From positions 160,001 to 224,000 of the forward strand of contig CAVSHT010000011.1 in assembly GCA_963727895.1 (NCBI GenBank): a DNA stretch of 64,000 nucleotides, read 5' to 3'. Below the pieces are notes generated by a model. The model saw only the letters and a program-made list of their open reading frames with translations, was not told where the DNA came from and did not search any database. This document shows positions 1-44,055 of this stretch, in pieces (within the stretch, counting starts at the first letter, position 1; every line of letters starts with the position of its first letter). The stretch comes from an uncultured Methanosarcinaceae archaeon. Its GTDB lineage: Archaea > Halobacteriota > Methanosarcinia > Methanosarcinales > Methanosarcinaceae. The position numbers were made by a program, and so were the translations under genes.

Positions 1-557
1 ATCCTTGTTTTAGTGGAAACTACTTCTTGACAAAAAAAATAGAGAGGTTACAAAAGTGGATGACATTCTGAAGTTTCAATCCTTGTTTTAGTGGAAACTA
101 CTTCTTGACAAATAGCGGAAGTGATACCACGAAAACCAATAATACTAAGTTTCAATCCTTGTTTTAGTGGAAACTACTTCTTGACATGAAGATTGCTGAA
201 TTGAAGAATCAGCGGAATGAGACGTTTCAATCCTTGTTTTAGTGGAAATTACTTCTTGACAGTAGTGACCGATGACAAAAGCGATAATTGAAAAGTTTCA
301 ATCCTTGTTTTAGTGGAAACTACTTCTTGACACTTAAACAGTGGCAATGTCCCAGGAATAATCACAAGTTTCAATCCTTGTTTTAGTGGAAACTACTTCT
401 TGACGATTTTATGGAAGAGCTTAAACTCTTATTTGAGGAGTTTCAATCCTTGTTTTAGTGGAAACTACTTCTTGACTTTCAAATGAATCGTATGATTATG
501 GAAATGAGACAATACGGACGGTTTCAATCCTTGTTTTAGTGGAAACTACTTCTTGAC
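1..557 (-). CRISPR. CRISPR array segment with repeat A (crRNA sense GTCAAGAAGTAGTTTCCACTAAAACAAGGATTGAAAC); continues beyond the window start
   Basis: Eight copies of + strand GTTTCAATCCTTGTTTTAGTGGAAACTACTTCTTGAC at 1 (partial), 73, 149, 224 (one C>T variant), 295, 368, 440 and 521. Spacers are 34-44 nt. The ATTGAAAC 3' end places transcription on the minus strand. Confidence 0.97.
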
Positions 558-596
558 GAAGCAAAATGGAAGAAACAAAAGAAGCGAAGCATACAG

Positions 597-3500
597 GTTT
601 CAATCCTTGTTTTAGTGGATCTTGCTCACGAATCCTTCACTTTTTCCCATTGTCAACGGACTTTGTAGGTTTCAATCCTTGTTTTAGTGGATCTTGCTCA
701 CGAATTGTTAACGAAACTATCATGCACAAAATATACCCTGTATGTTTCAATCCTTGTTTTAGTGGATCTTGCTCACGAATATGTAAAAGGGCAGATAATA
801 TCCAGACTATACGTCCTCGTTTCAATCCTTGTTTTAGTGGATCTTGCTCACGAATTATAAGTTTGTGCGTTAGCTATTGAAATCAATGAAAGTTTCAATC
901 CTTGTTTTAGTGGATCTTGCTCACGAATCCAATCTTGTGAGGTTTAATTCCCACATATTGTAGGTGTTTCAATCCTTGTTTTAGTGGATCTTGCTCACGA
1001 ATACAAATTTTACATATTTTGTTTTGGAAGATTTTAAAGTTTCAATCCTTGTTTTAGTGGATCTTGCTCACGAATTAATATTAGGAGTTACGATCCCGTG
1101 TGCTGACAAGTGTTTCAATCCTTGTTTTAGTGGATCTTGCTCACGAATATTGCTACCCCTTACCAAAGGTCTAGCAAAAAATGTTTCAATCCTTGTTTTA
1201 GTGGATCTTGCTCACGAATAACTGCTAAACTTGCTATAGATGCTATTAGAAATGGTTTCAATCCTTGTTTTAGTGGATCTTGCTCACGAATAAATGAGAA
1301 GTTCGGTTCGGGCTTATATATTTTATAGTTTCAATCCTTGTTTTAGTGGATCTTGCTCACGAATCTACAAATCCCCAACTTGCGCAAGGGCTTCCAGATT
1401 TGTTTCAATCCTTGTTTTAGTGGATCTTGCTCACGAATCGTTTTTTGTTCAAAAGAGTTATCTAATTTATTTGTAGTTTCAATCCTTGTTTTAGTGGATC
1501 TTGCTCACGAATAGATGTTTGAAAAGTAGCTGTTTCCTTGTGGGATGTGTTTCAATCCTTGTTTTAGTGGATCTTGCTCACGAATACTTAGCCATCTGCT
1601 CTTGTGTTTTGCCCTCTGCAATGTTTCAATCCTTGTTTTAGTGGATCTTGCTCACGAATGGTGACGGTTTCGTTGAGGGATGATGGCACAGTCTGAGGTT
1701 TCAATCCTTGTTTTAGTGGATCTTGCTCACGAATTCCGAAATCACCATCTGGATCATCTACCCATACTTCAGTTTCAATCCTTGTTTTAGTGGATCTTGC
1801 TCACGAATTCCGAAATCACCATCTGGATCATCTACCCATACTTCAGTTTCAATCCTTGTTTTAGTGGATCTTGCTCACGAATTCCGAAATCACCATCTGG
1901 ATCATCTACCCATACTTCAGTTTCAATCCTTGTTTTAGTGGATCTTGCTCACGAATTAAGTAAATGAAATCATCAAATGGCATTCTAGAACTATGTTTCA
2001 ATCCTTGTTTTAGTGGATCTTGCTCACGAATATGCTAAAGAAATCATGGCAGTAATGCAGGTTTACGGGTTTCAATCCTTGTTTTAGTGGATCTTGCTCA
2101 CGAATGCTTCTACAATTATTCCCTCTTTGGTTCTATAGCGTTTCAATCCTTGTTTTAGTGGATCTTGCTCACGAATCAGTGCATAACCATAATTGTTTAC
2201 AAAAGTGTTATTGGTTTCAATCCTTGTTTTAGTGGATCTTGCTCACGAATAAAGAATATCCAGCCTCATGTAGCTATTACATGGAAGTAATGTTTCAATC
2301 CTTGTTTTAGTGGATCTTGCTCACGAATTGACGGCATGTTTTTTGTTGAGTTAACAGGATCTAAGTTTCAATCCTTGTTTTAGTGGATCTTGCTCACGAA
2401 TATATTCCGATGATTGGGGGGATACATGGTATTTGGGTTTCAATCCTTGTTTTAGTGGATCTTGCTCACGAATATATAATATTCAAAATTAAAAATTGTG
2501 ATATCTATATGTTTCAATCCTTGTTTTAGTGGATCTTGCTCACGAATAGTGAAATGTCCGAGGGTGGCAGCGAAATAGTTTAGTTTCAATCCTTGTTTTA
2601 GTGGATCTTGCTCACGAATTATAAAAAATACTTCAGGCGGTGTAGACATCTGTCCAATGTTTCAATCCTTGTTTTAGTGGATCTTGCTCACGAATTCAAC
2701 ATATAACAAAGATATTGTTGAGGCATTTGGGTAGTTTCAATCCTTGTTTTAGTGGATCTTGCTCACGAATGGATGTTAGCCAGAAACTTGCGGTCTCGTG
2801 GAATAAGTTTCAATCCTTGTTTTAGTGGATCTTGCTCACGAATGGATGTTAGCCAGAAACTTGCGGTCTCGTGGAATAAGTTTCAATCCTTGTTTTAGTG
2901 GATCTTGCTCACGAATCATTGAATGGACATGAATCTCAGAAGGGGTATTGGTTTCAATCCTTGTTTTAGTGGATCTTGCTCACGAATACATGCACATCTA
3001 GGATACAAACAATCCGTACACAACTGTTTCAATCCTTGTTTTAGTGGATCTTGCTCACGAATATCATCCCAATCCAGTTCCCAATTTCAGTTTTGTTTCA
3101 ATCCTTGTTTTAGTGGATCTTGCTCACGAATAATATGCTCCATAATACAATATTCTTTTAATCATGTGTTTCAATCCTTGTTTTAGTGGATCTTGCTCAC
3201 GAATAAAAAGGGTATGCGTTTACCTTTCTGGAAACCCGATGTGTTTCAATCCTTGTTTTAGTGGATCTTGCTCACGAATATGCAAGAGCCACCTAGGATT
3301 AATTGATAAGTTGGTTTCAATCCTTGTTTTAGTGGATCTTGCTCACGAATAGGTGCCCTTGCTATTACCGCGATGGGCTTTTTTATGTTTCAATCCTTGT
3401 TTTAGTGGATCTTGCTCACGAATGATTATTCATGGACTTCTGAAGGAGTTGATAAATTTGAGTTTCAATCCTTGTTTTAGTGGATCTTGCTCACGAATTC

Positions 3501-6500
3501 TGCGAGTACCCATTGCCCTAGAATATATCTTTTGGTTTCAATCCTTGTTTTAGTGGATCTTGCTCACGAATCGCAAAAAGATAGGAGATTAACGACTATG
3601 CAGAGAAGTTTCAATCCTTGTTTTAGTGGATCTTGCTCACGAATCAAAATAAGAAAAGACACTGTAATTGTAGAAATGAGGTTTCAATCCTTGTTTTAGT
3701 GGATCTTGCTCACGAATTAATTGAAAGCGAAAACTATACCATTTCAATCCAAGAGTTTCAATCCTTGTTTTAGTGGATCTTGCTCACGAATCTCTCCTTT
3801 AAGAAATTCCGGCATAACATTTTTTACATAAAACTGTTTCAATCCTTGTTTTAGTGGATCTTGCTCACGAATAAGTCTGTTAATTATTGTTTCAAGTGTC
3901 ATTTGTTGTTTCAATCCTTGTTTTAGTGGATCTTGCTCACGAATGTTACTGGGTTTGTTGCATTTGAGGTTGGCTGTAGGTGTTTCAATCCTTGTTTTAG
4001 TGGATCTTGCTCACGAATTCTATTAGGATACTCTCATTCATATGCAATAGAGCGAGACATGTTTCAATCCTTGTTTTAGTGGATCTTGCTCACGAATCAA
4101 TCGTTCCAAACATCATACAATATTGTAAAACAAAGTTTCAATCCTTGTTTTAGTGGATCTTGCTCACGAATCAGATTATAGTTTTTGAATCAGAGGGAAG
4201 TATATTGTTTCAATCCTTGTTTTAGTGGATCTTGCTCACGAATACATAGAACCATATTGGTTTTGCGTTCCGATAACTGGTTTCAATCCTTGTTTTAGTG
4301 GATCTTGCTCACGAATTTGTATACATTTGTATTTGTGTGTAACAGAACGGTGCAGTTTCAATCCTTGTTTTAGTGGATCTTGCTCACGAATCTTTGCTCG
4401 TTCTTCTAGTCTACCCTTTAGTTCTGAGTTTCAATCCTTGTTTTAGTGGATCTTGCTCACGAATAATATCAAGGTTCCTGGAAAGAAGGTCCACTTCCAA
4501 TGTTTCAATCCTTGTTTTAGTGGATCTTGCTCACGAATAATTAAAGCGTTTATGTATCTGGCTCCGTTGATTGATAGTTTCAATCCTTGTTTTAGTGGAT
4601 CTTGCTCACGAATGCAGAAAATTATTTGATGAACAAAAATATCCTGGGTTTCAATCCTTGTTTTAGTGGATCTTGCTCACGAATTGTTTATCAGGTCACA
4701 AAAGAAGAGTGTATGACGTTAGTTTCAATCCTTGTTTTAGTGGATCTTGCTCACGAATGTAAATTAGGAGGAAAACAAAAGATGGAAACTTTAAGTTTCA
4801 ATCCTTGTTTTAGTGGATCTTGCTCACGAATGTTGCGTCGTAATCTCCGGCTGCAATGCCATAACCGTTTCAATCCTTGTTTTAGTGGATCTTGCTCACG
4901 AATAATAAGTCCAGTCGTCCTATTCCAATAACATCTTCTGTTTCAATCCTTGTTTTAGTGGATCTTGCTCACGAATCAGGCTTCAGCATGTGGGGTATCG
5001 TTCCATTCGGGGTTTCAATCCTTGTTTTAGTGGATCTTGCTCACGAATAAGTAATTATTATGCATCTAGATATGGAGTGAAAGTCGTTTCAATCCTTGTT
5101 TTAGTGGATCTTGCTCACGAATCCAATGACGACGATTTACCCACATTGATGTTAAAACTATGTTTCAATCCTTGTTTTAGTGGATCTTGCTCACGAATAA
5201 TAGAACCTGAATGTATTCAGGAATACCAACATCGGAAGTTTCAATCCTTGTTTTAGTGGATCTTGCTCACGAATAAGATGAAAAATTGAGACCGACTTCG
5301 AATGCATTGTTTCAATCCTTGTTTTAGTGGATCTTGCTCACGAATAACATGTGCTGATACCTCATCGGGGTCATCCATCTCAAGTTTCAATCCTTGTTTT
5401 AGTGGATCTTGCTCACGAATGCTCATATGAAATTGAGACAAAACGCAGAGGTTGGTTTCAATCCTTGTTTTAGTGGATCTTGCTCACGAATTGCACATTT
5501 ACCCTGTATGGGAGTTATAATTCTAATTGTTTCAATCCTTGTTTTAGTGGATCTTGCTCACGAATTCATGCATTGTGGCTAGAAAACGCAAAAGAAGCAA
5601 GTTTCAATCCTTGTTTTAGTGGATCTTGCTCACGAATTAGCTCAAAAAATCACAAAACGTTGTCCTTCTTGTAAGTTTCAATCCTTGTTTTAGTGGATCT
5701 TGCTCACGAATACTTCAATTTTCATTTTCAACATCTCCTTTCCTGTTTCAATCCTTGTTTTAGTGGATCTTGCTCACGAATTAGGTGCCCTTGCTATTAC
5801 CGCGATGGGCTTTTTTATGTTTCAATCCTTGTTTTAGTGGATCTTGCTCACGAATATTATCTTCAAAATTCGCTCGAAATGAAATTCCTAGTTTCAATCC
5901 TTGTTTTAGTGGATCTTGCTCACGAATACACTTTTTCAATGCTATTAATATTTCCTCATCTGGTTTCAATCCTTGTTTTAGTGGATCTTGCTCACGAATT
6001 AAGTAAATGAAATCATCAAATGGCATTCTAGAACTATGTTTCAATCCTTGTTTTAGTGGATCTTGCTCACGAATTATCATATTGGCGTTTGAATAGTTTC
6101 CAATGCAGATGTTTCAATCCTTGTTTTAGTGGATCTTGCTCACGAATCAGGATTCTAGTTTAAGATACAGATCTGCGGCGGTTGGGGTTTCAATCCTTGT
6201 TTTAGTGGATCTTGCTCACGAATTTCTATTTTCTATAATCCGTATTATAGTTTCTAGTTTCAATCCTTGTTTTAGTGGATCTTGCTCACGAATAGATGCA
6301 TATAACTCCTTATGTTTCGGTGGATCTTTTGTTTCAATCCTTGTTTTAGTGGATCTTGCTCACGAATACTTTGTCCTCTTTTAATAGTACCATCACTATC
6401 CATGTTTCAATCCTTGTTTTAGTGGATCTTGCTCACGAATAAGATTTCAAGCGGAAGGAATAAGAAACGATTGTAGTTTCAATCCTTGTTTTAGTGGATC

Positions 6501-9500
6501 TTGCTCACGAATTTGAAGTATTTAATACGTATAGACAGTCTCTAATTGCGTTTCAATCCTTGTTTTAGTGGATCTTGCTCACGAATGGATCTTGGACGTT
6601 TAAGACTGCTACCGTAAAATCTTAGTTTCAATCCTTGTTTTAGTGGATCTTGCTCACGAATATGTCCGCATTAGGAGATAATAGACTCAATCAGTCTAAG
6701 TTTCAATCCTTGTTTTAGTGGATCTTGCTCACGAATTAGGATCCTTCAGAACGAAGGTGTTAATGCAACAATGTTTCAATCCTTGTTTTAGTGGATCTTG
6801 CTCACGAATTATTTTAGTACCTTTAAACAAATCTCTAATTGATTTGTGTTTCAATCCTTGTTTTAGTGGATCTTGCTCACGAATTGTGAGCGTTTTTTTC
6901 AAATTCAGGGACTGAGTAGGTTTCAATCCTTGTTTTAGTGGATCTTGCTCACGAATACAAACACCCTAATTGCTGTTATTGATACTTATAAACTGTTTCA
7001 ATCCTTGTTTTAGTGGATCTTGCTCACGAATCGAAGTTAAAAGAATTGATGAAGAAATATCCCGAAATCGGTTTCAATCCTTGTTTTAGTGGATCTTGCT
7101 CACGAATCATGATGTGTGGAATGTTGACCCTTGACAGTGCAAGTTCGTTTCAATCCTTGTTTTAGTGGATCTTGCTCACGAATCAATTACTCTGTTTCCA
7201 GCTCCAGTATTACTCACCGCGGTTTCAATCCTTGTTTTAGTGGATCTTGCTCACGAATCCAGCAGCGTACAGTGTCATAGATGATGCCTGCAAGAGTTTC
7301 AATCCTTGTTTTAGTGGATCTTGCTCACGAATACGTATGAGTTGGATATTGACACGCAAACCTAGGTTTCAATCCTTGTTTTAGTGGATCTTGCTCACGA
7401 ATTTATTAGAAAAATCCATTAACTCTTCAAAGCTCAAGGTTTCAATCCTTGTTTTAGTGGATCTTGCTCACGAATCTCTTTTGTAGTCGAAATGAGCTTA
7501 CCATATGCATTAGGTTTCAATCCTTGTTTTAGTGGATCTTGCTCACGAATGATTGGACTGGGACAGCAGCAGGAACTATTTGGGTGTTTCAATCCTTGTT
7601 TTAGTGGATCTTGCTCACGAATTGAATACGGTACTTTCAACATTCAGTATGCTCTGTCGTTTCAATCCTTGTTTTAGTGGATCTTGCTCACGAATCCAAT
7701 GTAACTTTATATTTGATTTAGAGAGATTATGTTTCAATCCTTGTTTTAGTGGATCTTGCTCACGAATCCAGCAGCGTACAGTGTCATAGATGATGCCTGC
7801 AAGAGTTTCAATCCTTGTTTTAGTGGATCTTGCTCACGAATAGGACGAACGAAAATTAATGAAAGATATTGAAATGTTTCAATCCTTGTTTTAGTGGATC
7901 TTGCTCACGAATGAAGCCGATGGGTTAGAAGAAACTATTCAAAAAAGTTTCAATCCTTGTTTTAGTGGATCTTGCTCACGAATTATTAGAAGAATGTTTA
8001 GGATCAACCTGTTGAAATATGTTTCAATCCTTGTTTTAGTGGATCTTGCTCACGAATATGAAAGTACAGGAGCGAGGTCTACACTTCGCAGGAGTTTCAA
8101 TCCTTGTTTTAGTGGATCTTGCTCACGAATTATCAACGATATGTTGAACTTCTGGAACAATCTTGTTTCAATCCTTGTTTTAGTGGATCTTGCTCACGAA
8201 TTTTGTTGGCAGCAAATGATAGCGCGTCGTCAATTGGTTTCAATCCTTGTTTTAGTGGATCTTGCTCACGAATGAATCAAATCAGAATTTGAGTCTCTTG
8301 TTAAATTTGAAGTTTCAATCCTTGTTTTAGTGGATCTTGCTCACGAATATTTCTTGCTATATACTACAATAACACTAATAGTGTTTCAATCCTTGTTTTA
8401 GTGGATCTTGCTCACGAATTCCGTACTCCGTGGTAAAACGGATGCTGAGTTAGTGTTTCAATCCTTGTTTTAGTGGATCTTGCTCACGAATTCCAATGGA
8501 ACGATGACGTTTTAAAAGAAATCCCTGATGTTTCAATCCTTGTTTTAGTGGATCTTGCTCACGAATTTTTTGATAAGCCTCTTGAATTCAAAGAATGGTT
8601 TGAATATCGTTTCAATCCTTGTTTTAGTGGATCTTGCTCACGAATAGACATTTACAGCCTCCTTAGATCCCTGATGCAGCGGTTTCAATCCTTGTTTTAG
8701 TGGATCTTGCTCACGAATTTAAAACATGGAATTAACTCTCAACGATAATGTAACGTGTTTCAATCCTTGTTTTAGTGGATCTTGCTCACGAATCAGGATA
8801 CCCGTTGCTTTAGCTGCGGGAGGAATGCGGTTTCAATCCTTGTTTTAGTGGATCTTGCTCACGAATACTCTAAAATAGAAGATATCAAAGCCATGAATGA
8901 GTTTCAATCCTTGTTTTAGTGGATCTTGCTCACGAATCTTAGATCCGTGATTGATATATTGGTTGTAGGAGTAGTTTCAATCCTTGTTTTAGTGGATCTT
9001 GCTCACGAATAAGACACAAGCTGAATTATGGAATCAGAGGGCATTGTGTTTCAATCCTTGTTTTAGTGGATCTTGCTCACGAATTTCACTGGACTTGAGG
9101 GAATTGACGACAAGGGACATAGTTTCAATCCTTGTTTTAGTGGATCTTGCTCACGAATTTGTATTTAGATTGCGTAGGATTTTGAAGGTGAAGTTTCAAT
9201 CCTTGTTTTAGTGGATCTTGCTCACGAATTGGATACCTCAAGTATTAGTACAGAAGGGGAATCTGGTTTCAATCCTTGTTTTAGTGGATCTTGCTCACGA
9301 ATTTGCGGCTTTAACAATTGAAATTATCCCATTGATAGGTTTCAATCCTTGTTTTAGTGGATCTTGCTCACGAATCTCTCAAAATTGAAACAATTGTGTT
9401 TAGAATTTGATTGTTTCAATCCTTGTTTTAGTGGATCTTGCTCACGAATCCGGTTCAATCCCGGATGACCAGACCTATAGTTACTGTTTCAATCCTTGTT

Positions 9501-9522
9501 TTAGTGGATCTTGCTCACGAAT
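597..9522 (-). CRISPR. CRISPR array with repeat B (crRNA sense ATTCGTGAGCAAGATCCACTAAAACAAGGATTGAAAC), about 122 repeats
   Basis: The 37-bp GTTTCAATCCTTGTTTTAGTGGATCTTGCTCACGAAT recurs about every 73 bp from 597 to 9486-9522 (manual count ~122). Spacers are mostly 33-40 nt. Leader and cas genes lie on the right side. Confidence 0.99.
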
Positions 9523-9635
9523 AGGGCAAAATTTTCCGTCATTTGGCCAGAAAAAGCCTGAAATAAGCCCTTTTTTTGGGCTAAAATTCTTGCTGGAAAA
9601 TTATCAAACCCTTTATAAATACAAGAAAAATCTCT
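9523..9635 (-). promoter_or_regulatory. CRISPR leader
   Basis: AT-rich non-coding gap between the cas4 stop and the first repeat, with a TATA-like TTTATAAA at ~9612-9619. Confidence 0.75.
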
Positions 9636-10367
9636 TCATACGCAGATATTCCTGTAACAGCAATCTACGCATTTTCTAGAAGACTTAGCGGTTTTGGGAT
9701 ATAAACCTTTTTGAACAATATCGAGTATTTCCCCAATAATTTTCTCAGCCTTTTTGAAATCAGAAGTAGTAATCTCCATTTCTTTAACCAGGCTGTTGCT
9801 TCTGGTAAAACATATGTAAGCACGATTTACTTCAATATCGTAATTTTCTCTAATCAAAAGAGCCTGCAAAACCAGCTGAAATTTATAGGTTTTAAAAATC
9901 TTGTCTTTATACTCGGCAAATTTGTATTCAAGAGGAGCAGCAGTTCCATCTTCAAGAAAAAGCACCTCATCAACTATTCCCTTTATATGATGTTGTTTTG
10001 AAGCAATGAAAACGTCACTCTCTTTCCTTATGCAGTTTAGTTTTTTTCTCACATAATCCCTGTTGGTTAGTTTCCTTGTTTCATGGACCTCGCGGCCTTT
10101 GATAACCTTAAACCTTTTCTCTTCATACTGGGGAATATCGAGGCAATACATATAGTAGATAAAACGAGAACAGAAAAGGTATTCAAGAACATCTGAAATT
10201 CGGATTATTGTTCCGGAATCTTTATCAAAATCAGGCTCAGTGTATATCCCTTCTTCATTATCAGGATCACTTTCAGGAGCTATATCTTTTTCACAATCTA
10301 TTGCAGCTTGCTGATCACTTCCCGCACAAGCAGAAGAGCTACCTTCTTTGAGAGAAAAATTCGTCAT
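9636..10367 (-). CDS. cas4: CRISPR-associated exonuclease Cas4 with acidic N-terminal extension
   Basis: EYLFCSR, GIVD, PLEYK, QLVLQAL and C-terminal CVDCCYRNIC Fe-S cysteines; position next to the array. Confidence 0.93.
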   Translation of the reverse strand: MTNFSLKEGSSSACAGSDQQAAIDCEKDIAPESDPDNEEGIYTEPDFDKDSGTIIRISDVLEYLFCSRFIYYMYCLDIPQYEEKRFKVIKGREVHETRKLTNRDYVRKKLNCIRKESDVFIASKQHHIKGIVDEVLFLEDGTAAPLEYKFAEYKDKIFKTYKFQLVLQALLIRENYDIEVNRAYICFTRSNSLVKEMEITTSDFKKAEKIIGEILDIVQKGLYPKTAKSSRKCVDCCYRNICV

Positions 10368-10381
10368 ACTTACCTCAAAAC

Positions 10382-10673
<292 letters not shown>

Positions 10674-10758
10674 ACCCAATCCCCTCATTCTTATTTTATC
10701 AAATTATTACTTTCGAATTATTACTTTACCTTTTCACAAACTTATCGCGTTAAAAGTT

Positions 10759-11731
10759 TTATTTCCCGATCAGGCTGTTTGCAATCCTGTGACAGTCAAA
10801 CTGGATTGTATTTCCAATTTTTATTTTCCTTCCCTTGTAGCTTATTTCTTTATCAAAAGTTTCATTGACAGCCTGAATAAGGACGGCTTTACCTTCTTTG
10901 TTAAGAGTCATTCCATTAGGAATTTCATCAAAAAAGCTGTTTGAAACCTGTTTTTTCGAGAAAAGATTGAAAACGGTCCTGTCAATGTGGATGCGGTACA
11001 TTTCAATCAGGTCAAACACAAAAGATTTTTTGTTGTAGTCATCCGTATGGTTGAAGCCGACATAAGGATCAAGTCCTGCTATAATGCACGCTTTTTCCAC
11101 CTTTGAATACAAAACCCCATATCCGTAATTCAAAAGGCAGTTGAATCCGTCCTTTGCAGGATTCCGGCTTCTGCCATTGAATTTCCATCTGTCCGGTAAA
11201 AGAAAACTCAAAGCTTCAAAATAGTATCTGGAAGCCATTCCCTCAAGCCCCATGATTTTTCCCCGCATCTCATCAAGTTTTCCTTCAAGGACTTCAAGCT
11301 GGGATTTCATGTCTTCCATTCCAGAAATGTAGTCGTCAAGTTCGTCCTTCTGGTCAGGCCTGTTCTTTTTAAGGTCTTTCAAAAAAAGAATCTGGCTGTC
11401 AATCTTCTGCTCAATCCAGCCTTTTGCAAGCCTGAACCCTTCAGGCTCTTCCGAAATTTCAAGCTGCCTTCTTCTTATGTAAGTCGTGCTCCCAAGTTTT
11501 GAGTGCCATACTCTGCCGTAAGGGTCCCCGAAATTATCCAGAAAAACGATGTCAATATTGTTTTCTACTGCAAATTTAATGGCATCGGTTGTTATGGTTG
11601 CAGAAGTTGTAATCAGGATGCTGTCAACTTTCTTTTCAGAGACTTCGAAAGTCTTGTCGTCAACTTTTACAAGAAAAGCAGTTGTTCTGTTTTTTTAGAA
11701 ATGAACCGCGGGTGTTGATTACAAGCTGCAT
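10759..11731 (-). pseudogene. cas1: Cas1, apparent +1 frameshift near 11675
   Basis: Starts MQLVINTRGSFLKK (ATG 11729-11731). An extra T falls in a homopolymer run, then the frame is open: DIVFLDNFGDPYGR...GLEGMASRYYF...NCLLNYGY...GLDPYVGFNH...DLIEMYR. Confidence 0.92.
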
Positions 11732-12387
11732 TTTCTCACCGTTCCAAAACCGCGAGATACGGATTTTCCAAGACCGAAATAGTCGGGGATAAGGAAATTT
11801 ACCATAAACTCCCCTTTGAACGTAGCAATTTCCACTCCTTTCATTTTACTAGAACCTGGGTTCATATTAATCTCGCATTTGATCTGTCCCGGAACAGTAT
11901 ATCCAAGAGACTTGGACATCGAAAGAATGTTTCCAACCAGAGTTTTTCGAAGGAGTTCTTTTTGTGCTGTAGAGTCCATCTTCTTGTATTTGCCAGTGAA
12001 GTTTTCTTGGTTGAGGGCAAACCAGGGAGTTTCAAATCTGTAGGTATGGATTTTGTCTGAAATGCCAAAATCTTGTTCTTTAAAAGAGATTTTCTTTTCC
12101 AGAATTTCATATGTGGATTCACCTAGTTCGATTTTTTCATATTTATTGAAAATTTCCTGCAAGACTTCTACACCCTCATTTATCCCGAAAACTAGAGGAA
12201 TCCCTTTCAAAATTTGATATTGAACCAAAGGATACATATAGATAACTTTATCACAATTGTGTTGGTGCAAAAGTGTATACTCATTAAACCGGGTAGCGAA
12301 AAAACCTCGAAGTTTTGAGGCGTTTGTTCCTACTTTTCGGTCAGGAACAAGAGTTAGAGTTAGCGTTTTGACTTTCATGTCAATCAC
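11719..12387 (-). CDS. cas6: CRISPR endoribonuclease Cas6 (Cas6b-like)
   Basis: LHQH, YPLVQY and the C-terminal Gly-rich loop GLGKSVSRGFG; intact ORF. Confidence 0.9.
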   Translation of the reverse strand: MIDMKVKTLTLTLVPDRKVGTNASKLRGFFATRFNEYTLLHQHNCDKVIYMYPLVQYQILKGIPLVFGINEGVEVLQEIFNKYEKIELGESTYEILEKKISFKEQDFGISDKIHTYRFETPWFALNQENFTGKYKKMDSTAQKELLRKTLVGNILSMSKSLGYTVPGQIKCEINMNPGSSKMKGVEIATFKGEFMVNFLIPDYFGLGKSVSRGFGTVRKCSL

Positions 12388-14804
12388 ATATCATGCTGGA
12401 CTTTAATTCAAAAACAAAACCGGTTTCAGGATCATAATAATGTTTTATTTGTTCAAAAGGAATATATCCTATATTGAGATCCTCTAGTTCTTCACAGGAA
12501 AAGTCTTTTTTAGGCACCGAGATGATGTATTCATTGAATTTTTTCCTGATGGACAGGAATTTCTCTTTTCGATCCAGTGGATTTTTAAGAGATTTCATTA
12601 CAATGTATTCTTTCCATATTTCAGCCGCTTCGTTATCATTTTCTACAAATACATCTATTTTTTCGTATCCTGTTTTGTCATCTATTAACCTGAAATCGGA
12701 TGTAAGAGTTTTAAATTTAAGCTCATTTATGTATGAGAGTAGCTCTTTGGACTCATCTTCACTTGAAGTATCTTTAACTTTCCTGAAATAGTTGTTATTT
12801 AAAAAGAGCAGGTCTTTTTCATAAATTTCAGAGGGGAGGTCTTTCAACACTTCTTTTGTTTTGTCAATTAGAAAACTCGAATATATATATCGATGAAACT
12901 CTTTCCTTTCATCTTTCAGAACCACAATGTTTACTTGTCCTCGAGAACTCTTGGAAGAATTCCTGTTACATCTCCCTGAAACCTGATTTATTGAATCAAT
13001 TGTGGCAAAATCCCTGTAAACAACATCTACGTCGATATCTACTCCGGCTTCTATAAGCTGAGTGCTAACAATAATTTTTCTTTTTTCCGACTTTTCTTTG
13101 ATTTCCTTAATTTTTGTAAGCCTTTCTTTTGGAATAATGTTAGTAGAAAGATAATAATAATCACTATTTTCAAGTTCTAAATTCTTTAAATGATTAAATA
13201 CCTCAAGCGAAGATTTAAGAGTGTTCAATACAAACAAAAAATCTTTTTCGGAATTATTTTTTACTTCAGATTCAATTATTTCCTTGAAATGATCCATATC
13301 CATCGGATTCAGGTTTATATTCAGCTTAACTCGATCAAATTCCCTGAAATACGTATCTTTATTTTTTACCAGCTCAACAATTTCTCCCTTTTCAGGATCA
13401 AAAATGAGAGGTTGAGTTGCTGTTACAAAAATGAAGTACGTATTAAAATATTCTGCAAAACCCGAAATGATCTGTTTTAACAGTAGCCAGTACTTATGAG
13501 GAATTGACTGGATCTCATCAAGTATTACAATCGAATTTGCAATTGTATGAAATTTTCTGAGTGAGCGATTTTTATTAGACACAATTGTGTGGAAAAACTG
13601 GACAAATGTAGTTACGATTATCTCAGAGTTCCACCCCTCAATTAAAAATAAACCTTTAAGCCCTTCAAATTCTTCATCGTCTTGCGTTCTATAAAATATA
13701 TCTGCAAGGTGATGATGTTTAAGTAGCACTTCCTCAGAAGGATTTGCGGTCTCAACTGTTTTAAAAACATCTTCAAAAACATCGTAGTTCTGGTCTATTA
13801 TACTCAAAAAAGGTAGAGAATAAATTATTTTTGCTTTGATTCTCTTTTCCTCTCTTAATCTTGCTTTCAATTTTAATGCAAACGAAAGTGATGTGAGAGT
13901 TTTTCCCGAACCTGTAGGGACACTTATTGAATATATTTTATTATTAAGATCAAGTTTCTCAATACTTTCTGTAACTTCCTCATAAATCTCGTTACGTACT
14001 TTATTCATTATACCTTCACTATTTTGGAAACCCTTTTCTACCTTATACTTATCCACAAGTTCAGGTGAAATTTCGATTTCACTGGAAACATCAATAGAAG
14101 ACGCATCTATCTTATCAGAGTTTATAAGAATTGAGTATAGAGTTAATGTAATTAAATAATAGCCTGTAAATTGCTCCTTCTTGAGCAATTTTATGAATTT
14201 CCTTCTATTTTTTAAAATTTCGTTAGCTATGGAACGGTATTCATTGCAGAAAGTGTCGATGTCAAAAGAAATATCATACCCATCTAGTAACTTTTCATAT
14301 ATTGTTTTTAATTCACTTGTATCTAATGACTTTATTTGAAGATCAATAATTTCAAGAGTATCTTCATCTATAATTCTCGTATTTCATCCTCAGCATCTTT
14401 CAGGTTTCCATGATGCCTTTTTACAATGAGATATCCTATGATAGGAGTATATTCCAGAATATTTTTATCGTTAAGCGAATCTACATACTTTTTTAATATG
14501 TAATAGGTAAAAATAGCTGATATCAAGGCCATGATGATATTCTTTTTTATTTTTTAAGCCCCTCTGTATGGAAGGATCTAGTCTCAAAAAGATATCTTTG
14601 AAAATACCTTGTGCCTTTCCCAAAATCGTGACAAACACCTATAAGAAATGTTATTTTTGAAAAAGTATTTTCATCAATTCCAAACTTTTCCAGTGATAAT
14701 CTTTTCTCCCTGCTTGTCGAGATAGATTTGTTTCCTACATTGGATAAATGTTTAAATAGTATTTTATCGGGATGGGAATAAAGATGGAAATCACATGAAG
14801 ACAA
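12380..14804 (-). pseudogene. cas3: Cas3 HD-nuclease/helicase; HD part broken by several indels (~14190-14590)
   Basis: HD-region motifs YSHPDK, CHDFGK and the helicase motifs PTGSGKT, ILDEIQ, TAT, STQLIEAGVD, QVSGRCNR. Confidence 0.92.
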
Positions 14805-15493
14805 TTCCTTCTCCATTCTCAAGCCTCCAGAGATTATTTACATTCGCAAGAATGCATTTTGCATTTTTTTCAAACAAAACTTTGCCGTATTCTGTAACTT
14901 CCCTATTAGGAAGCATTTCTATTGGAATAGTCTCTGAAAAATACTCTTTTCCTTCTTCAAAATTGATTTTTATTAGCTCTTTTTCGGGAATTACAGAATG
15001 AATTTCCCTTTCAGAGTCTGAAAGTTCACTGACAGCCTCCATTTCTCCTATAAATTCATAATTGGCAATGTGTTCACTCAGACCGAGGCACAGAGTATAC
15101 ACCGACTTGTGCTCTTTTAACATAGAGTAAAGTTTGTTATATACTTCTTCCGAAGAATGAGAAAAATAAATCCTGTATCTTACATCTTTTAATACCTCGA
15201 ATCTTATCTGAGTTCTGGTCTTTATTCTGCTCATCATGGGAGCAATTTTGGTGTCGATTAAATTTTCTGCAATTCTGGTCTTTTTGATAGGACAGACCTA
15301 TTTTTACTGCAATATTTGCATCTTCTTTAGATAAATACTGCAGATACTCATCTTTTCCAAACCCCTCTATAGCACCAATCATTCCAGCAATAGCTGTTCG
15401 AGGAGGAATAGAATATGTAAGGGGAGAAGTTGTAGTATAGTGTTTTCGGAAATGACCGAATTCTCCCCATACATCGAACACTAATACTTTCAT
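14791..15493 (-). pseudogene. cas5: Cas5 (type I-B/Hmari), split by a frameshift near 15297
   Basis: MKVLVFDVWGEFGHFRKHYTTTSPLTYSIPPRTA N-terminus; C-terminal half is ORF 14791-15237. Confidence 0.9.
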
Positions 15494-15502
15494 GTTCTTA
15501 GC

Positions 15503-16487
15503 TCACATTGATAATTTTTCAGTATTAATCCCGGCTTCATTAAGGCTCTTTTCGAAGTCAGTCTCTTCTCCGCCATATGTGAACATAAGAGACCCGTCCA
15601 GACAAATCTGGATATTTTCAATCTTGTCTTTGTTTTTAGCCAGTATCATCAACCAATCTCTGGACATCAATCCTCTACCTGTGAGATATCCCGAATCTCT
15701 TCATCAATCAAATCAGACTTTAAGACTGAAAAGGTTGTTCAGATCCCCAATGTGATAATTTCCCTCTTTGTAGTTTACTTTCAACAGGAGACGGGGAACC
15801 TGGCCGACTTTTGACCTGGAAATCAGGTTCTTAGTTCCATTCCACATTCCATCAAGAAGCAGATCTACATCTTCCTCTGAAAGTTTCGTATCCTTTGCCG
15901 CATTTTCATTAATAATTCCGTAAAAACTTATCAAAGAATAGGGTAAGAAATCCTCTTCACGGAACGTTTTCTGACTGGCTCCTTCCTTTGAAGCAAAAGC
16001 TCCTGTTCCACGGAAATGTTTCATGAAGACTTTATGCATTGATCTACCGATCTTAAACTGTACAGGACCAGTATGAGTTATTGAACCTGTTTCTTTTTCC
16101 CCTTTCTTGACTTTAAGTTCAAGTGGAACAGTTCCACCAAATAAACGAACGTCAATACAATCAGCCAGAAGATTTCTCATTTATGGCACTTTTACCAGTT
16201 TCGAATGAATCAAGAGTCTCTTCAGTTGTCAAAAAATCTCTTGCTCTCATTTTTGCATCTTGAATAGAACCATTTTCATCTGAGATTTCTCTAACAAAAA
16301 TCTCTTTACCTCTAAACTTGTAGAGATGATCACGTATTGTTCTCTTAAGCCTGACATCTGTTACAAGGTTTATTCCTGTCTCTTCGTCAATCCGTGGTTT
16401 GTTTTCATCAAGTGGATCTCCGTTTGGATTTCCATCTTTTATATCATACAAAAATACAATTTCAGATCTTCTGTTTACTTCAGTCAT
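15503..16487 (-). pseudogene. cas7: Cas7/Csh2 (type I-B), split by frameshifts near 16175 and 15650-15715
   Basis: NPNGDPLDENKPRID, VTDVRLKRTIRD, IDVRLFG, SRSKVGQVPRLL; the tail can be followed to TGA at 15503. Confidence 0.9.
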
Positions 16488-18350
16488 TTTTAATCTCCTT
16501 TTCAGATTTAGGTGACTTTAAAAGGTTTGACAAATTCATACCAAGAACAAAATAGAAACTGATTTCATCGTTTGACATTTTCCAATTATTGCCAGATTGA
16601 ATCATGTATTTTGAGATCAGAGTATTCAAGTTCTTTATAATAATTAGCATCATACTCTTCGAGTTTATTTATGGTTTCAGGGAAGATTCTTTTTACATAA
16701 CGCTCATCAAGATTCAGGCCTCGAAGTTTAGTTCTAAAAGGAGTACTTCCACGCTGAAATTTTTGAATATTTAGTAAATACTGAACAAGTGCGCCTTCTA
16801 AAAAAATAGCCTTCTTTGCATCGGTATTGAAGAAATGTTCAAATTCCGAAAAGATAACATTTGTTCGTTCCTCATAACCATTGTTTTCCTTTGGTTCCAT
16901 GTCACTTAATAAAGTTGATAAATTCGTAGAATTCACACATTTACCTCCTGTATAATTTCCAAGCAAACATAAATTGACTTAAAAAATCTAACATTTGGAA
17001 TCCCAAAAACAGAGAATATCTTGTTGAATTTTCATTTCTGAAATCTTTTCTAATACGCTGCATAATATACTTTAACAGAAAATTATAATCAATGGAAGTT
17101 CCTGTAAATATCCCGTTTGTGATTTCTAAAAAGTACTTGTTTAAATCAGGGTCATCTAGAGTATTTGGGAAGAACCATCTTAAATTACCTAATGTGAATT
17201 GAATGGATTTTACTTCGGTATCATTAGAAAAATAGTTACTGAATATTTTTCTTTTGTCAACGATTTCTTTGGATTTGAAAAGCTCTCTTAACCTTGAAGG
17301 AAGAATGTCCTCGATATACAAAAGAATTCGATATGCCGAATTGGATTTTTCATAAAATTGGAAATTAAAATTAAGATAATTATCCTCTTCACTTAGAATT
17401 TCAAGGATATCGTTTTCATTAGTTGTTAAAAATCTTTTATAGTCCTTATTAAATGTAAATTTTTTCTCATTAAATTTCTCAAAAGTATCGAAAAGGTCCT
17501 CGTTAGTACTATTATTAAATAGCTTAGGGATAATGAGGAAATTGAACCCATAAAAACCAAAGGACATGTATTTTTCGATATATTCTTTTCCCGCTGTAAT
17601 TTTCAAGGCACATTCAAGGCAAATAGGATTATTTCTCCATGCCTTACTTTGGTCAAATCCTCCGCTAACAAATCCTCTTTTATCTACTGTATAGAATTCA
17701 TAAGGCGTAACGAAACCATAAACTTCATTATGTTTTTTACAAACCGAGCATAATTTATCATCGGCTTTAGAGATAATATCATATTTATTGTAAAACTTGG
17801 AAGCCCCATTGTTCTTAAGGATCTTACGAAATACTTCAAAATCTCCGACATATCTGATGAAGTCATTTTCTTCAAAAACTAAGGTTAATATCGAGTTCTC
17901 CTTTGAATCGATGGAATTAACTTTAGGTTCCAGATCTAAGAGTATTTTCTCTTCATTCTCTTTTATACACTTTCCAAGAAGCTCCAAAAATTGGACTTCT
18001 CCACTATCTAATATAGGCTTTGCTTCTTTCAAAGGCTTTGAGAACCAGCCTATAATCTTGTTAGAGAATGTTTTTTTGATTTCTGTGACTCGTGCAGTAG
18101 GAGTAATGTCTGGTCCATTAGAAGATCCTCTCTTATAGAGATATTTTATAATTTTCTCCTTTGAGTACTCCTGATGCTCAATTTCTTTAAACTCAAAATA
18201 ATCTTTGCAAGAAACTAACTTAATGCAAAATACATGTTTATAAGTTTCATTGCTCGCAGGGTTTTCAACTAGAATTGACACAAAATCATTTAAATCCTTA
18301 TTATCTTTTTCGAGTGCATACTCACCAATTTCTTTCATTGCTTCAATCAC
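16480..18350 (-). pseudogene. cas8b: Cas8b/Csh1 (TM1802-like) large subunit, split near 16960 and 16615
   Basis: CSVC...FYTVDKRGF...PICLEC zinc motif and C-terminal EISFYFVLGM; first gene of the operon. Confidence 0.87.
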
Positions 18351-18773
18351 AGAAATTACACCCTCTTAAAATAGTGAAATAGGTCCTATGTTTAATTTAG
18401 CGCACTTGTGTATCTTTGAAATATAGTCCATTATATACAAGTCATAAAATTGGATAGTTAACATATTTTATATATATTCCTAAAATTAATTATAAAAATA
18501 AATAAATTAATCAAAAACTCAAGTAGATCTGTTATTGTGACATATTTAATAAAAATAAACAATTGAGTAACTATAAGTTCAAATTTGCTTTGATTTATAC
18601 AAGAGATTCATTTAATTATGTCGTTATCTACTTGACTAGGATTTTCCCTTCAAAAATTATACTGCTGTCAGAGGAAGAGGCACCTGAAAAAAGGTTCAGT
18701 CTGAGGAAATGATCGAAAAAACATTTTACGATTATATAAAGAGGTCCTCTCGTAGTAGATGAAGATAAATTCA

Positions 18774-40786: not shown

Positions 40787-42980
40787 TTACATTGAAAGGA
40801 AGTCTGCAGCTTTGGGCAGTTCCTTCTTCAGACCCTTCCTTTCTCTGATCTTACCCACAATCTCGTTCTGGATGCTGGTAGGCACAACGTCAAAGCCGCC
40901 GAATTCAGTGCTCCACATAGCACGTCCTTCGGTTGCAGACCTGATCTCGCCTGCAAATCCAAACATCTCAGCTACAGGCACTCTTGCCTCAATAATTGCC
41001 AGGTCTCCTTCCGTGGTCATGTTAAGAATAACTCCACGGCGACCCTGCAGTTCCTTTGTTGCACCACCCATTAAAAGCTGGGGCACCTGGATAAAGACCT
41101 TCTGATAAGGCTCAAGCAGGGTGTCATCTGCCATAAGCATACCTGCCTGAATGGCCTGCCTTGAAGCAGGAATAACCTGTGCCGGACCTCTGTGGATTGC
41201 GTCTTCGTGAAGCTTGGCATCTACGAGCACACATTTCACATTTGCTACAGGTTCCCTAGTAAGTGGGCCTGCACGCATGACTTCCTCAAACCCATCAAGT
41301 ATGAGTTCCATTGTCTCATTCAGGTACTGGATACCTTTGGTCATATCGATGAAAATATTGGAATTAAAGATGCCGACAATACCTTTTGCTTCTTCTTTCT
41401 CCATGCCAAGATCAATCAGCTTCTGCCTGCGCTCAAGTTCAGGCAGGTTCATGTTGATATCACCGGATTTGATAGCACTGACGATCTCAAGGTCAAGGGG
41501 TTCCACATGGATATAGAACCTGTTGTGCCTGTTTGGAGACTTTCCTTCAACAGCTTCAATCTTCTTCTTAATGGTTTCCCTGTAAACGACAATTGGCTTG
41601 CTTGTGGTGATTTCCACATTCTTGTCCCTTTCAATCCTGTGGGCAATAACCTCAAGGTGAAGTTCTCCCATACCTGCCATAAGGTGTTCCCCGGTTTCCT
41701 CATCAAGAGTTATCTGAAGAGTTGGGTCTTCCTTTGCAACCTGTCTGAGTACCTCAATTAGTTTGGGCAAGTCTTTGGTGTGTTTTGCTTCAACAGCTAC
41801 AGTCACCACAGGTTCACTCACGTGCCTTATGCTTTCAAAAGGAGCCATGCCATCAAGAGTAGTCACAGTAGATCCGACGATTGCATCTTTCAGGCCGGTA
41901 ACTGCAGCAATGTTTCCTGCAGGAATCTTGTCCACTTCAAGCCTTTCAGGCCCCATGAAGATACTAACCTGCTGGACTCTGCTCTTCTTTGCAGTTCCTG
42001 AAGTAAAGACCTCCATACCACGGGTAAAAGAACCACTAAACAGCCTTCCTGTTGCAACTTCTCCTGCGTGGGGGTCAATTGAAATGTCAGTTACCATGAA
42101 TGCAAGATCTCCGTCTGCATTTGCATGGATCATTGAAGTTCCGATATCAGAGTCCTCATCCCCATGCCAGATGACCTTTACTCTATCCTTCTGAGCTTCA
42201 AGAGGATTTGGCAAGAAGTTAATGACCATATCAAGAACAGCTTCGTGCAGAGGACATTTTTGTGCCAGAGACTTCATATCTCCAACTTTACAGAACTCAT
42301 ATACGTCGTTAAAAGAGACCCCGGTTTTCTTCATCATGGGTACACTGATTGCCCAGTTGTAAAGAGCGGACCCAAAAGCAACAGTTCCGGCTGCAGCATC
42401 GACTCTCCAGCCTGCCTTGTATTTTTCAGGGTTCATATTCTTGATGAGCTTGTTCACGTGATCAATAACTTTTCCAAGACGAACCTGCATTTCCTGGGAA
42501 TCAACTTGTAACTCATTGATCAGCCTGTCAACCTTGTTAACGAAAAGTACAGGTCTAACATGTTCCCTTAAAGCCTGTCTCAGCACGGTTTCAGTCTGAG
42601 GCATAGTACCTTCGACTGCATCCACAACAACAACTGCACCGTCCACGGCTCTCATAGCACGAGTAACGTCCCCACCGAAGTCAACGTGTCCAGGAGTATC
42701 GATCAAGTTAATCAGGTAGTCTTCATTATCGTAATTGTGAACCATGGAAACGTTCGAGGCGTCAATTGTGATACCTCTTGCCTGTTCCTCTTCGTCGGAA
42801 TCCATGAATAATTGTCTGCCCGCAAGTTCCTTGGAAATCATGCCGGCGCCAGCTAACAGGTTATCCGATAATGTAGTCTTTCCGTGGTCAATGTGCGCAA
42901 CGATTCCAATGTTTCTGATCTTTGTTGGTTCATTCATGAGCGTCGTTACGCGCTCGACCATCTTTCTTCCTTCGTCCCAT
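40787..42980 (-). CDS. fusA: Elongation factor 2 (apparent 1-nt insertion just after the start)
   Basis: [25 protein letters not shown]. The ATG at 42978-42980 (MGRRKK) is one base out of frame with MVERV. Confidence 0.97.
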
Positions 42981-43049
42981 AATAATACCTTGTAAATAAA
43001 TATGTCCAGATTATATTGACTTTTTAATCGGGGAAACCCGCATAAGTAA

Positions 43050-44055
<1,006 letters not shown>

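Follow-up and report, generated by a model that had tools for sequence, protein, structure and literature searches.

The 64,000-nt stretch analysed here (C11:160001-224000, hereafter the window), from an uncultured Methanosarcinaceae archaeon, begins inside a CRISPR array in which two different 37-nt repeats, designated A and B, succeed one another without transition. Our analyses indicate that this array is probably the product of a fusion of two neighbouring, co-oriented arrays, brought about by a deletion through the 23 nt that the two repeats have in common, and that a leaderless and frozen remnant of a type III array has been left at its far end. The whole array spans C11:159846-169522 and is the only CRISPR array in the assembly, which has a size of 3.67 Mb in 19 contigs and is rated 84% complete. 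It consists of 132 repeats of 37 nt, 122 of them B repeats lying towards the leader and 10 of them A repeats at the opposite end, and contains 131 spacers ranging in length from 32 to 44 nt.

Repeats, spacers and flanks of the array

The array and its leader are read from the minus strand. The A segment (1..557, minus strand) forms the trailer, or old, end, and eight of the 10 A repeats fall within the window: a partial copy at 1-31, copies starting at 73, 149, 224, 295, 368 and 440, and a last copy at 521-557. Among the seven full copies (73-557), six are exact and one carries a C>T change (224-260). Upstream of the window, the segment extends to C11:159846, where the array ends, and includes two further full A repeats in addition to the one straddling the window start; the two outermost A repeats are degenerate. 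The B segment (597..9522, minus strand) contains 122 identical 37-nt repeats and 121 spacers, 116 of which are distinct. Between the two segments lies a single spacer of 39 nt (558..596, minus strand), flanked by the final B repeat and the first A repeat; its length is within the normal range of 32-44 nt, and no gap, leader or degenerate repeat is present at the junction (557/597). An earlier reading of the window from its letters alone (the sequence-only reading) had described such an abrupt switch across one ordinary spacer, and our repeat mapping bears this out.

Comparison of the two repeats on the minus strand showed that their 3' 23 nt, including the ATTGAAAC handle, are identical, whereas their 5' 14 nt match at only 4 of 14 positions and differ at the other 10, with no intermediate forms in the array; the division into 23 common and 14 differing nucleotides that had been proposed is thus confirmed. 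The same reading had placed the common part at the 3' end of the CRISPR RNA (crRNA). The sharing is real but the wording was loose, as the common part is the 3' end of the repeat, the last 8 nt of which become the 5' handle of the crRNA. With its regular repeats, mostly unique spacers of similar length, neighbouring cas genes including one for Cas6b, and a leader at one end, the array belongs to the Cas6b-type family of 37-nt repeats known from systems of types I-B and III. Several B spacers are duplicated, namely a tandem triplicate (1735-1957, with a 74-nt unit), a tandem duplicate (2771-2916) and two dispersed pairs (1957/6000 and 7259/7768), and these tandem and dispersed duplicates fit repeat-to-repeat recombination in this array. 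In RNA folding, neither the A nor the B repeat performed better than shuffled sequences and both were predicted to be essentially unstructured, so that folding gives no structural clue to Cas6b specificity.

The spacers of the two segments differ in composition as well. For a wider comparison, A-type spacers were grouped into 13 sets, taken from the arrays in L047, L049, L055, L026, L025/L024, L028, L029, L057-L059 and L052 and from positions 1-596 of the window, two of these sets being halves of the single A array of G006. All 13 A sets were found to be pyrimidine-rich in the crRNA sense (AT skew -0.11 to -0.43), whereas the 11 B sets were near-symmetric (-0.12 to +0.11). Since the long open reading frames (ORFs) of this genome are purine-rich on the sense strand, with A exceeding T in 87% of 574 frames, A guides would tend to be antisense to coding strands, a bias expected for RNA-targeting type III systems according to passages of PMC8482600. 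The bias tracks repeat and leader type, not the cell, because A and B spacers differ within the same genomes despite the same 8-nt handle, and this is an argument against interchangeable use of the two repeat types. In the present array, the 10 A-type spacers had a mean purine fraction of 0.357 and the 116 distinct B spacers one of 0.489 (p = 0.001 by Mann-Whitney test); the lowest value of all 131, 0.18, was that of the junction spacer at 558-596. If the crossover took place inside the shared 23 nt, the junction spacer would be expected to derive from the A array and the repeat preceding it to be recombinant, and the composition agrees with this expectation, marking 558-596 as an A-array spacer. 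The oldest B repeat (597..633, minus strand) is accordingly presumed, from the geometry of a homology-guided deletion, to be the recombinant one, with a B-type 5' half and a crossover somewhere in its shared 3' 23 nt. A search of the 131 spacers against the rest of the assembly for self-targets yielded only matches of 17-21 nt, which is the level expected by chance.

The leader is assigned to 9523..9635 (minus strand), and the direction of transcription to the minus strand, because the ATTGAAAC repeat end lies on this strand, degenerate repeats are found at the A end, and a stretch of 107-108 nt beside the B end is recurrent. This repeat-proximal part of the leader recurs upstream of B-type arrays in relatives and adjoined such arrays at 89-93% identity in 13 of 15 searched loci. 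For Methanosarcina mazei, passages of PMC7465815 describe a leader part of 108 nt that is conserved between arrays. Beyond the leader lies a type I-B operon, which is treated below.

A different module flanks the A end. The sequence-only reading had advised looking upstream of the window for the cas genes tied to repeat A, and these were found there: 259 nt past the A end and in the same direction lies the gene of a group-II-intron-like reverse transcriptase (RT) of 364 amino acids, followed by that of a second Cas6b (227 amino acids), 46% identical to the Cas6b of the I-B operon. Further on are genes for a CARF protein, Cas10-like pieces, Csx10, Csx19 and RAMP proteins, and the set of Csx10, Csx19 and RAMP genes indicates type III-D. 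The RT scored 293.8 bits against the group II intron RT model TIGR04416, just below the cutoff of 300, and the RT/Cas6b/type III operon contains no cas1. By gene content the module belongs to the RT-associated type III systems of Methanosarcinaceae, probably those of RT-CRISPR clade 1. A stand-alone RT beside cas6 and without cas1 is the arrangement given for Methanosarcina type III loci in passages of PMC5513706 and PMC5541045. Relative to G062, a single-base insertion was noted at L001:17748 (C11:157748), near the 3' end of the type III-linked cas6b, where it alters a C-terminal glycine-rich stretch.

Separate and joined arrays in related genomes

B-type repeats were found in 51 of 59 genomes of the genus, and A-type repeats in 8 of 37 sampled from the genus, the present genome being one of the eight. 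Five relatives (G006, G028, G062, G026 and G007) have a B array upstream of an A array, the two pointing the same way, and past the A array come the RT and a type III operon. The gap between the B and the A array measures 6483 nt in G006, 4226 nt in G028, and approximately 3158, 2829 and 3135 nt in G062, G026 and G007, respectively. The G006 gap contains cas1 and a Csa3-like gene, and the gaps of G007 and G026 align with it over the stretch holding this cas1; the gaps of G062 and G028 contain unrelated small genes. The stretch adjacent to the A array is common to all five. Alignment of the 180 nt upstream of nine A arrays from six genomes revealed a conserved leader different from that of the B arrays. 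In these relatives, A and B arrays are therefore independent arrays, each with a leader of its own, and B-type arrays carrying this 5' handle adjoin type III loci.

The flanks of the fused array are homologous by position to those of the separate ones. The flank from the RT to the type III-D genes is 91% identical to that of G062 up to the array end, and the I-B flank is 92% identical to that of G028, while the intervening DNA is missing from this 84% complete assembly. When the five gap sequences, including the A leaders, were searched for in the assembly, only matches of 90-185 nt with 69-76% identity were obtained, and a search of the assembly for a second cas1 found none beyond that of the I-B operon.

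Scattered degenerate repeats were observed downstream of I-B-linked B arrays in two of these relatives, at L069:8843-12414 in G028 and at L071:1258-8870 in G062, those of G028 including two A-like repeats beside a B repeat. These repeats look like fossils of earlier arrays.

The pattern of a direct B-to-A junction was scanned for in a species-representative genome collection and in a metagenome collection. The genome collection contained one other such contig, L028/L078 (G022:C44), in which 48 B repeats are followed by four A repeats and then by a type III-A operon. In G022, one base of the shared part is not the same in A and B, and the junction repeat has its B-type form, so that the crossover there would lie in the last 17 nt of the repeat. 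Two metagenome contigs were also found, L079 with at least 21 B repeats followed by three A repeats and then the RT, and L080 with at least two B repeats followed by six A repeats and then the RT; the RTs of both are 75-82% identical to that of this genome. No spacer of the present array was found in any other among the 1167 spacers of 21 arrays compared, so that no array genealogy could be built, and the sole matches between arrays were six consecutive spacers shared by G012 and L079 and one spacer shared by G007 and G066. Since the joined arrays contain different A spacers, and a leaderless A segment would be unable to gain new ones, they probably arose by separate fusion events.

Some arrays appear to represent a further step of erosion. 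For example, in the single-contig, 99% complete genomes G012 (L051) and G067 (L050), the B array abuts truncated remnants of the RT gene and no A repeats are left. The metagenome contig L079 contains the same six consecutive B spacers as G012, yet retains three A repeats and a longer RT, thereby linking an intermediate state to a more eroded one. The reverse junction was met incidentally in G016, in which 13 A-type repeats (one divergent form) run directly into two B repeats. Taken together, B-to-A fusion looks like a real and recurrent occurrence in Methanosarcina and not like a new kind of system.

Other RT-linked arrays of the genus combine different 5' halves with the same 3' 22-23 nt. That of G014 (L048:8845-10663) consists of 23 copies of one such form followed by two copies of another, and in that of G066 (L052) a fourth repeat form is mixed with single B repeats.

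Origin of the junction

The proposed fusion would have had two parents, a B array belonging to a type I-B system with its own leader and an A array, under a leader of another kind, belonging to an RT/Cas6b/type III module. A B repeat and an A repeat would have recombined, or slipped during replication, within their common 23 nt, and the loss would have comprised the end of the B array, the DNA between the arrays together with the A leader, and those A repeats and spacers that lay closest to this leader. That two arrays of different systems had recombined within their shared half was already suggested by the sequence-only reading; the relatives support this well, and refine it to co-oriented neighbours and a likely deletion that removed the A leader.

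The A remnant of 10 repeats, being leaderless, would gain no further spacers, and its transcription would depend either on the I-B leader some 9 kb upstream, giving a precursor of about 9.7 kb with the remnant at its distal end, or on chance internal promoters. Cas6b would be expected to cut 8 nt before the repeat end, inside the shared part, to give the 5' tag AUUGAAAC. As the cut would fall within the shared part, no chimeric guide would arise, and all crRNAs would have the same 5' tag and either an A-type or a B-type 3' part. It is possible that one transcript feeds both effector types, as had been proposed, but the fusion would not be what creates this, B-type arrays with this 5' handle being already found beside type III loci in relatives. 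Although the identical 8-nt handle on A and B would suit a multi-effector (shared) array, the differing strand bias of the spacers speaks against equal use. Cross-cleavage by Cas6b has been reported in M. mazei, according to passages of the citing papers PMC7465815 and PMC12102369.

Several observations weigh against a simple deletion between neighbours. The I-B operon of G028 and G062 is not next to the B array that accompanies the A array but lies elsewhere, far from the A/RT/type III locus, with a B array of its own, so that explaining the present genome takes a minimum of one more rearrangement, or an ancestral layout of another kind. In addition, although the spacers retain the signatures of both parent arrays on the two sides of the junction in the present array, these signatures are weaker in L079 and L080, whose junction spacers are not pyrimidine-rich (purine fractions of 0.447 and 0.583). 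A and B spacers of the present array do not differ significantly in length (38.1 versus 36.5 nt, p = 0.098), and its newest 23 B spacers are themselves mildly pyrimidine-leaning (0.447 versus 0.499, permutation p = 0.015). All direct junctions were found in metagenome-derived assemblies, whereas the three complete genomes examined (G006, G028 and G062) keep the arrays apart; the join described here rests on one assembly, with no public run over the junction. Finally, as the assembly is 84% complete and has frameshifts in a housekeeping gene, absence of the gap sequences from the assembly is weaker than absence from the genome.

With respect to the ancestral layout, matches to the 3' end of cas4 were found to precede B leaders at type III loci, with lengths of 138 nt at L028:14951-15200, 79 nt at L025:10810-10997 and 47 nt at L050:13452-13609. 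These cas4-end remnants sit in type III loci of G022, G006 and G067 that have no I-B operon, which suggests that the B arrays there descend from a copy of an I-B leader-array unit. The ancestral layout may thus have resembled that of the present genome, or a second rearrangement may have joined the loci here.

An exchange of the acquisition end alone might also account for the array, although we regard it as rather unlikely. By this explanation, only the leader and first repeat of a pure A array were replaced by the I-B leader and a B repeat, through recombination or gene conversion in the shared 23 nt, and the 121 B-flanked spacers were acquired later. The junction would look identical, the identity of all 122 B repeats is as would be seen after recent copying, and the I-B operon here lies directly at the leader, unlike in G028 and G062. 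However, relatives in which nothing has fused as a rule likewise have long B arrays of identical repeats, and because five relatives have long B arrays already upstream of their A arrays, a simple deletion suffices. The exchange differs from the deletion only in the amount of B array that arrived with the incoming end.

It is very improbable that the junction is an assembly artefact, with the common 23-mer having led to a false connection of two distinct arrays. Public sequencing runs were searched and four were examined, and none contained the spacers of this array; the best held 0.24-0.27 of the sampled words, and contigs from these runs yielded the RT gene side only (L008:1-1382, with 90-99% identity) together with bare repeats. 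The lack of a run spanning the junction, the indel errors in this assembly, described below, and the occurrence of the other direct junctions likewise in metagenome-derived contigs would be in keeping with an artefact. On the other hand, all 132 of the 37-nt repeats, and a 74-nt unit present three times in tandem, are resolved in the assembly; this would require reads or k-mers longer than the 37-nt repeat, so that an overlap of 23 nt should be unable to cause the join. Furthermore, a leftover A leader and gap are present on no other contig, and joins of this kind occur in four assemblies, which differ in their spacers and in how many A repeats they contain. The single contigs of G012 and G067, in which the B array abuts RT remnants, also argue against an error. 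For annotation, an abrupt switch of repeats is better read as a fusion scar than as a new array type, assembly error being unlikely here.

Ordinary drift within a single array can practically be dismissed, for although CRISPR arrays do propagate variants of the leader-end repeat by copying, drift proceeds by point changes, often with intermediates, whereas here 10 of 14 positions change at once, intermediates are absent, and A and B are independent repeat families with their own leaders in the genus.

Fusion by deletion thus remains the explanation that we favour, and it would mean that half a repeat in common can allow the arrays of different CRISPR systems to merge, stranding the memory of one system as a frozen, leaderless tail. 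More tentatively, the 37-nt repeat may consist of two functional halves, with the 5' 14 nt and the matching leader serving as an identity tag that chooses the acquisition regime, the B type sampling DNA in a strand-neutral manner and the A type sampling transcripts in a strand-specific and possibly RT-dependent manner; we consider this a possible but doubtful extension. If it were true, fused arrays would represent natural experiments in which guide sharing is kept and acquisition identity is lost, and, with strand bias in one cell going with the repeat type instead of the effector, either the stand-alone RT module of Methanosarcina would impose direction at acquisition or type III loading would be specific for the repeat type.

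Type I-B operon and comparison with known systems

The I-B operon beyond the leader contains, on the minus strand, cas8b, cas7, cas5, cas3, cas6b, cas1 and cas4. The frame of cas4 (9636..10367; TIGR00372, 1.4e-49) is open and that of cas6b (11719..12387; Cas6b_N and Cas6b_C) is intact. The sole cas1 of the assembly (10759..11694) is broken by a 1-nt insertion at 11673; cas3, with helicase and HD domains (12380..14837), is split by frameshifts, and cas5b (14791..15493), cas7 (Csh2; 15713..16487) and cas8b (16586..18350) are also split. Compared with G028 and G022, in which the I-B genes are intact, region 9523-18400 has 11 private single-base insertions and no private single-base deletions, and the insertions break cas1, cas3, cas5, cas7, cas8b and one frame between cas4 and cas1 that is presumably cas2. 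Of the stretches used for comparison, an 11.3-kb control has two frameshifts, both in one long housekeeping gene, the 7.9-kb stretch from the RT to the type III-D genes carries the same number (in cas10 and close to the end of the second Cas6b, one each), and the 132 repeats of the array have no frameshift-type indels. The frameshift density in the I-B operon is four to five times that of its surroundings. With insertions alone, and these outside homopolymers, the pattern resembles sequencing error more than it does natural decay. If the frameshifts were true, the array would neither be able to grow nor to serve an I-B effector.

The housekeeping gene mentioned above (40787-44055, minus strand) appears as three overlapping frames by virtue of a private insertion at 42962 and a private deletion at 43605. 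Its indels point to indel errors across the assembly and fit the completeness of 84%.

Among known systems, those of types I-B and III in M. mazei are similar in several respects, as passages of PMC7465815 and PMC12102369 describe a repeat family ending in ATTGAAAC, a conserved leader part of about 108 nt, two Cas6b genes, and both systems in one cell. The present genome differs in having a second repeat family, A, with its own leader, and in the physical fusion of the two arrays. The A-end module resembles RT-CRISPR clade 1, or 'branch 11', for which passages of Toro et al. 2017 (PMC5541045) and Silas et al. 2017 (PMC5513706) report a stand-alone group-II-intron-like RT, cas6 and type III genes without cas1; the A-type array, A leader, strand-biased spacers and I-B fusion seen here are unmentioned in those passages. 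In Sulfolobales, section 4.4 of PMC4390879, in the passages drawn on here, describes deletion, duplication and exchange via short direct repeats, as well as a leaderless locus that is inactive in acquisition and invariant. The recombining repeats of those loci are alike, whereas here only 23 of 37 nt are common and the product joins two repeat families. Passages of Vink et al. 2021 (PMC8482600), dealing with arrays compatible with multiple effectors, similarly report a coding-strand bias of type III-linked spacers, giving guides able to pair with mRNA. That work deals with whole arrays, whereas here two regimes occur in one array and the bias goes with repeat type and not with the cell. The contrast between A and B within single genomes also makes the site of the type III strand bias testable in a genetically tractable genus of methanogens.

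Repeat-mediated rearrangement of CRISPR loci and the RT and Cas6 module of Methanosarcina are thus already known, as judged from the passages of PMC4390879 and of PMC5513706 and PMC5541045 referred to above. In the literature searched, we found no report of arrays joining two repeat families. As far as this literature extends, the new elements are the documented fusion of two repeat families, with the unfused state kept in relatives, and the marked difference in strand bias that separates A from B arrays under one crRNA handle.

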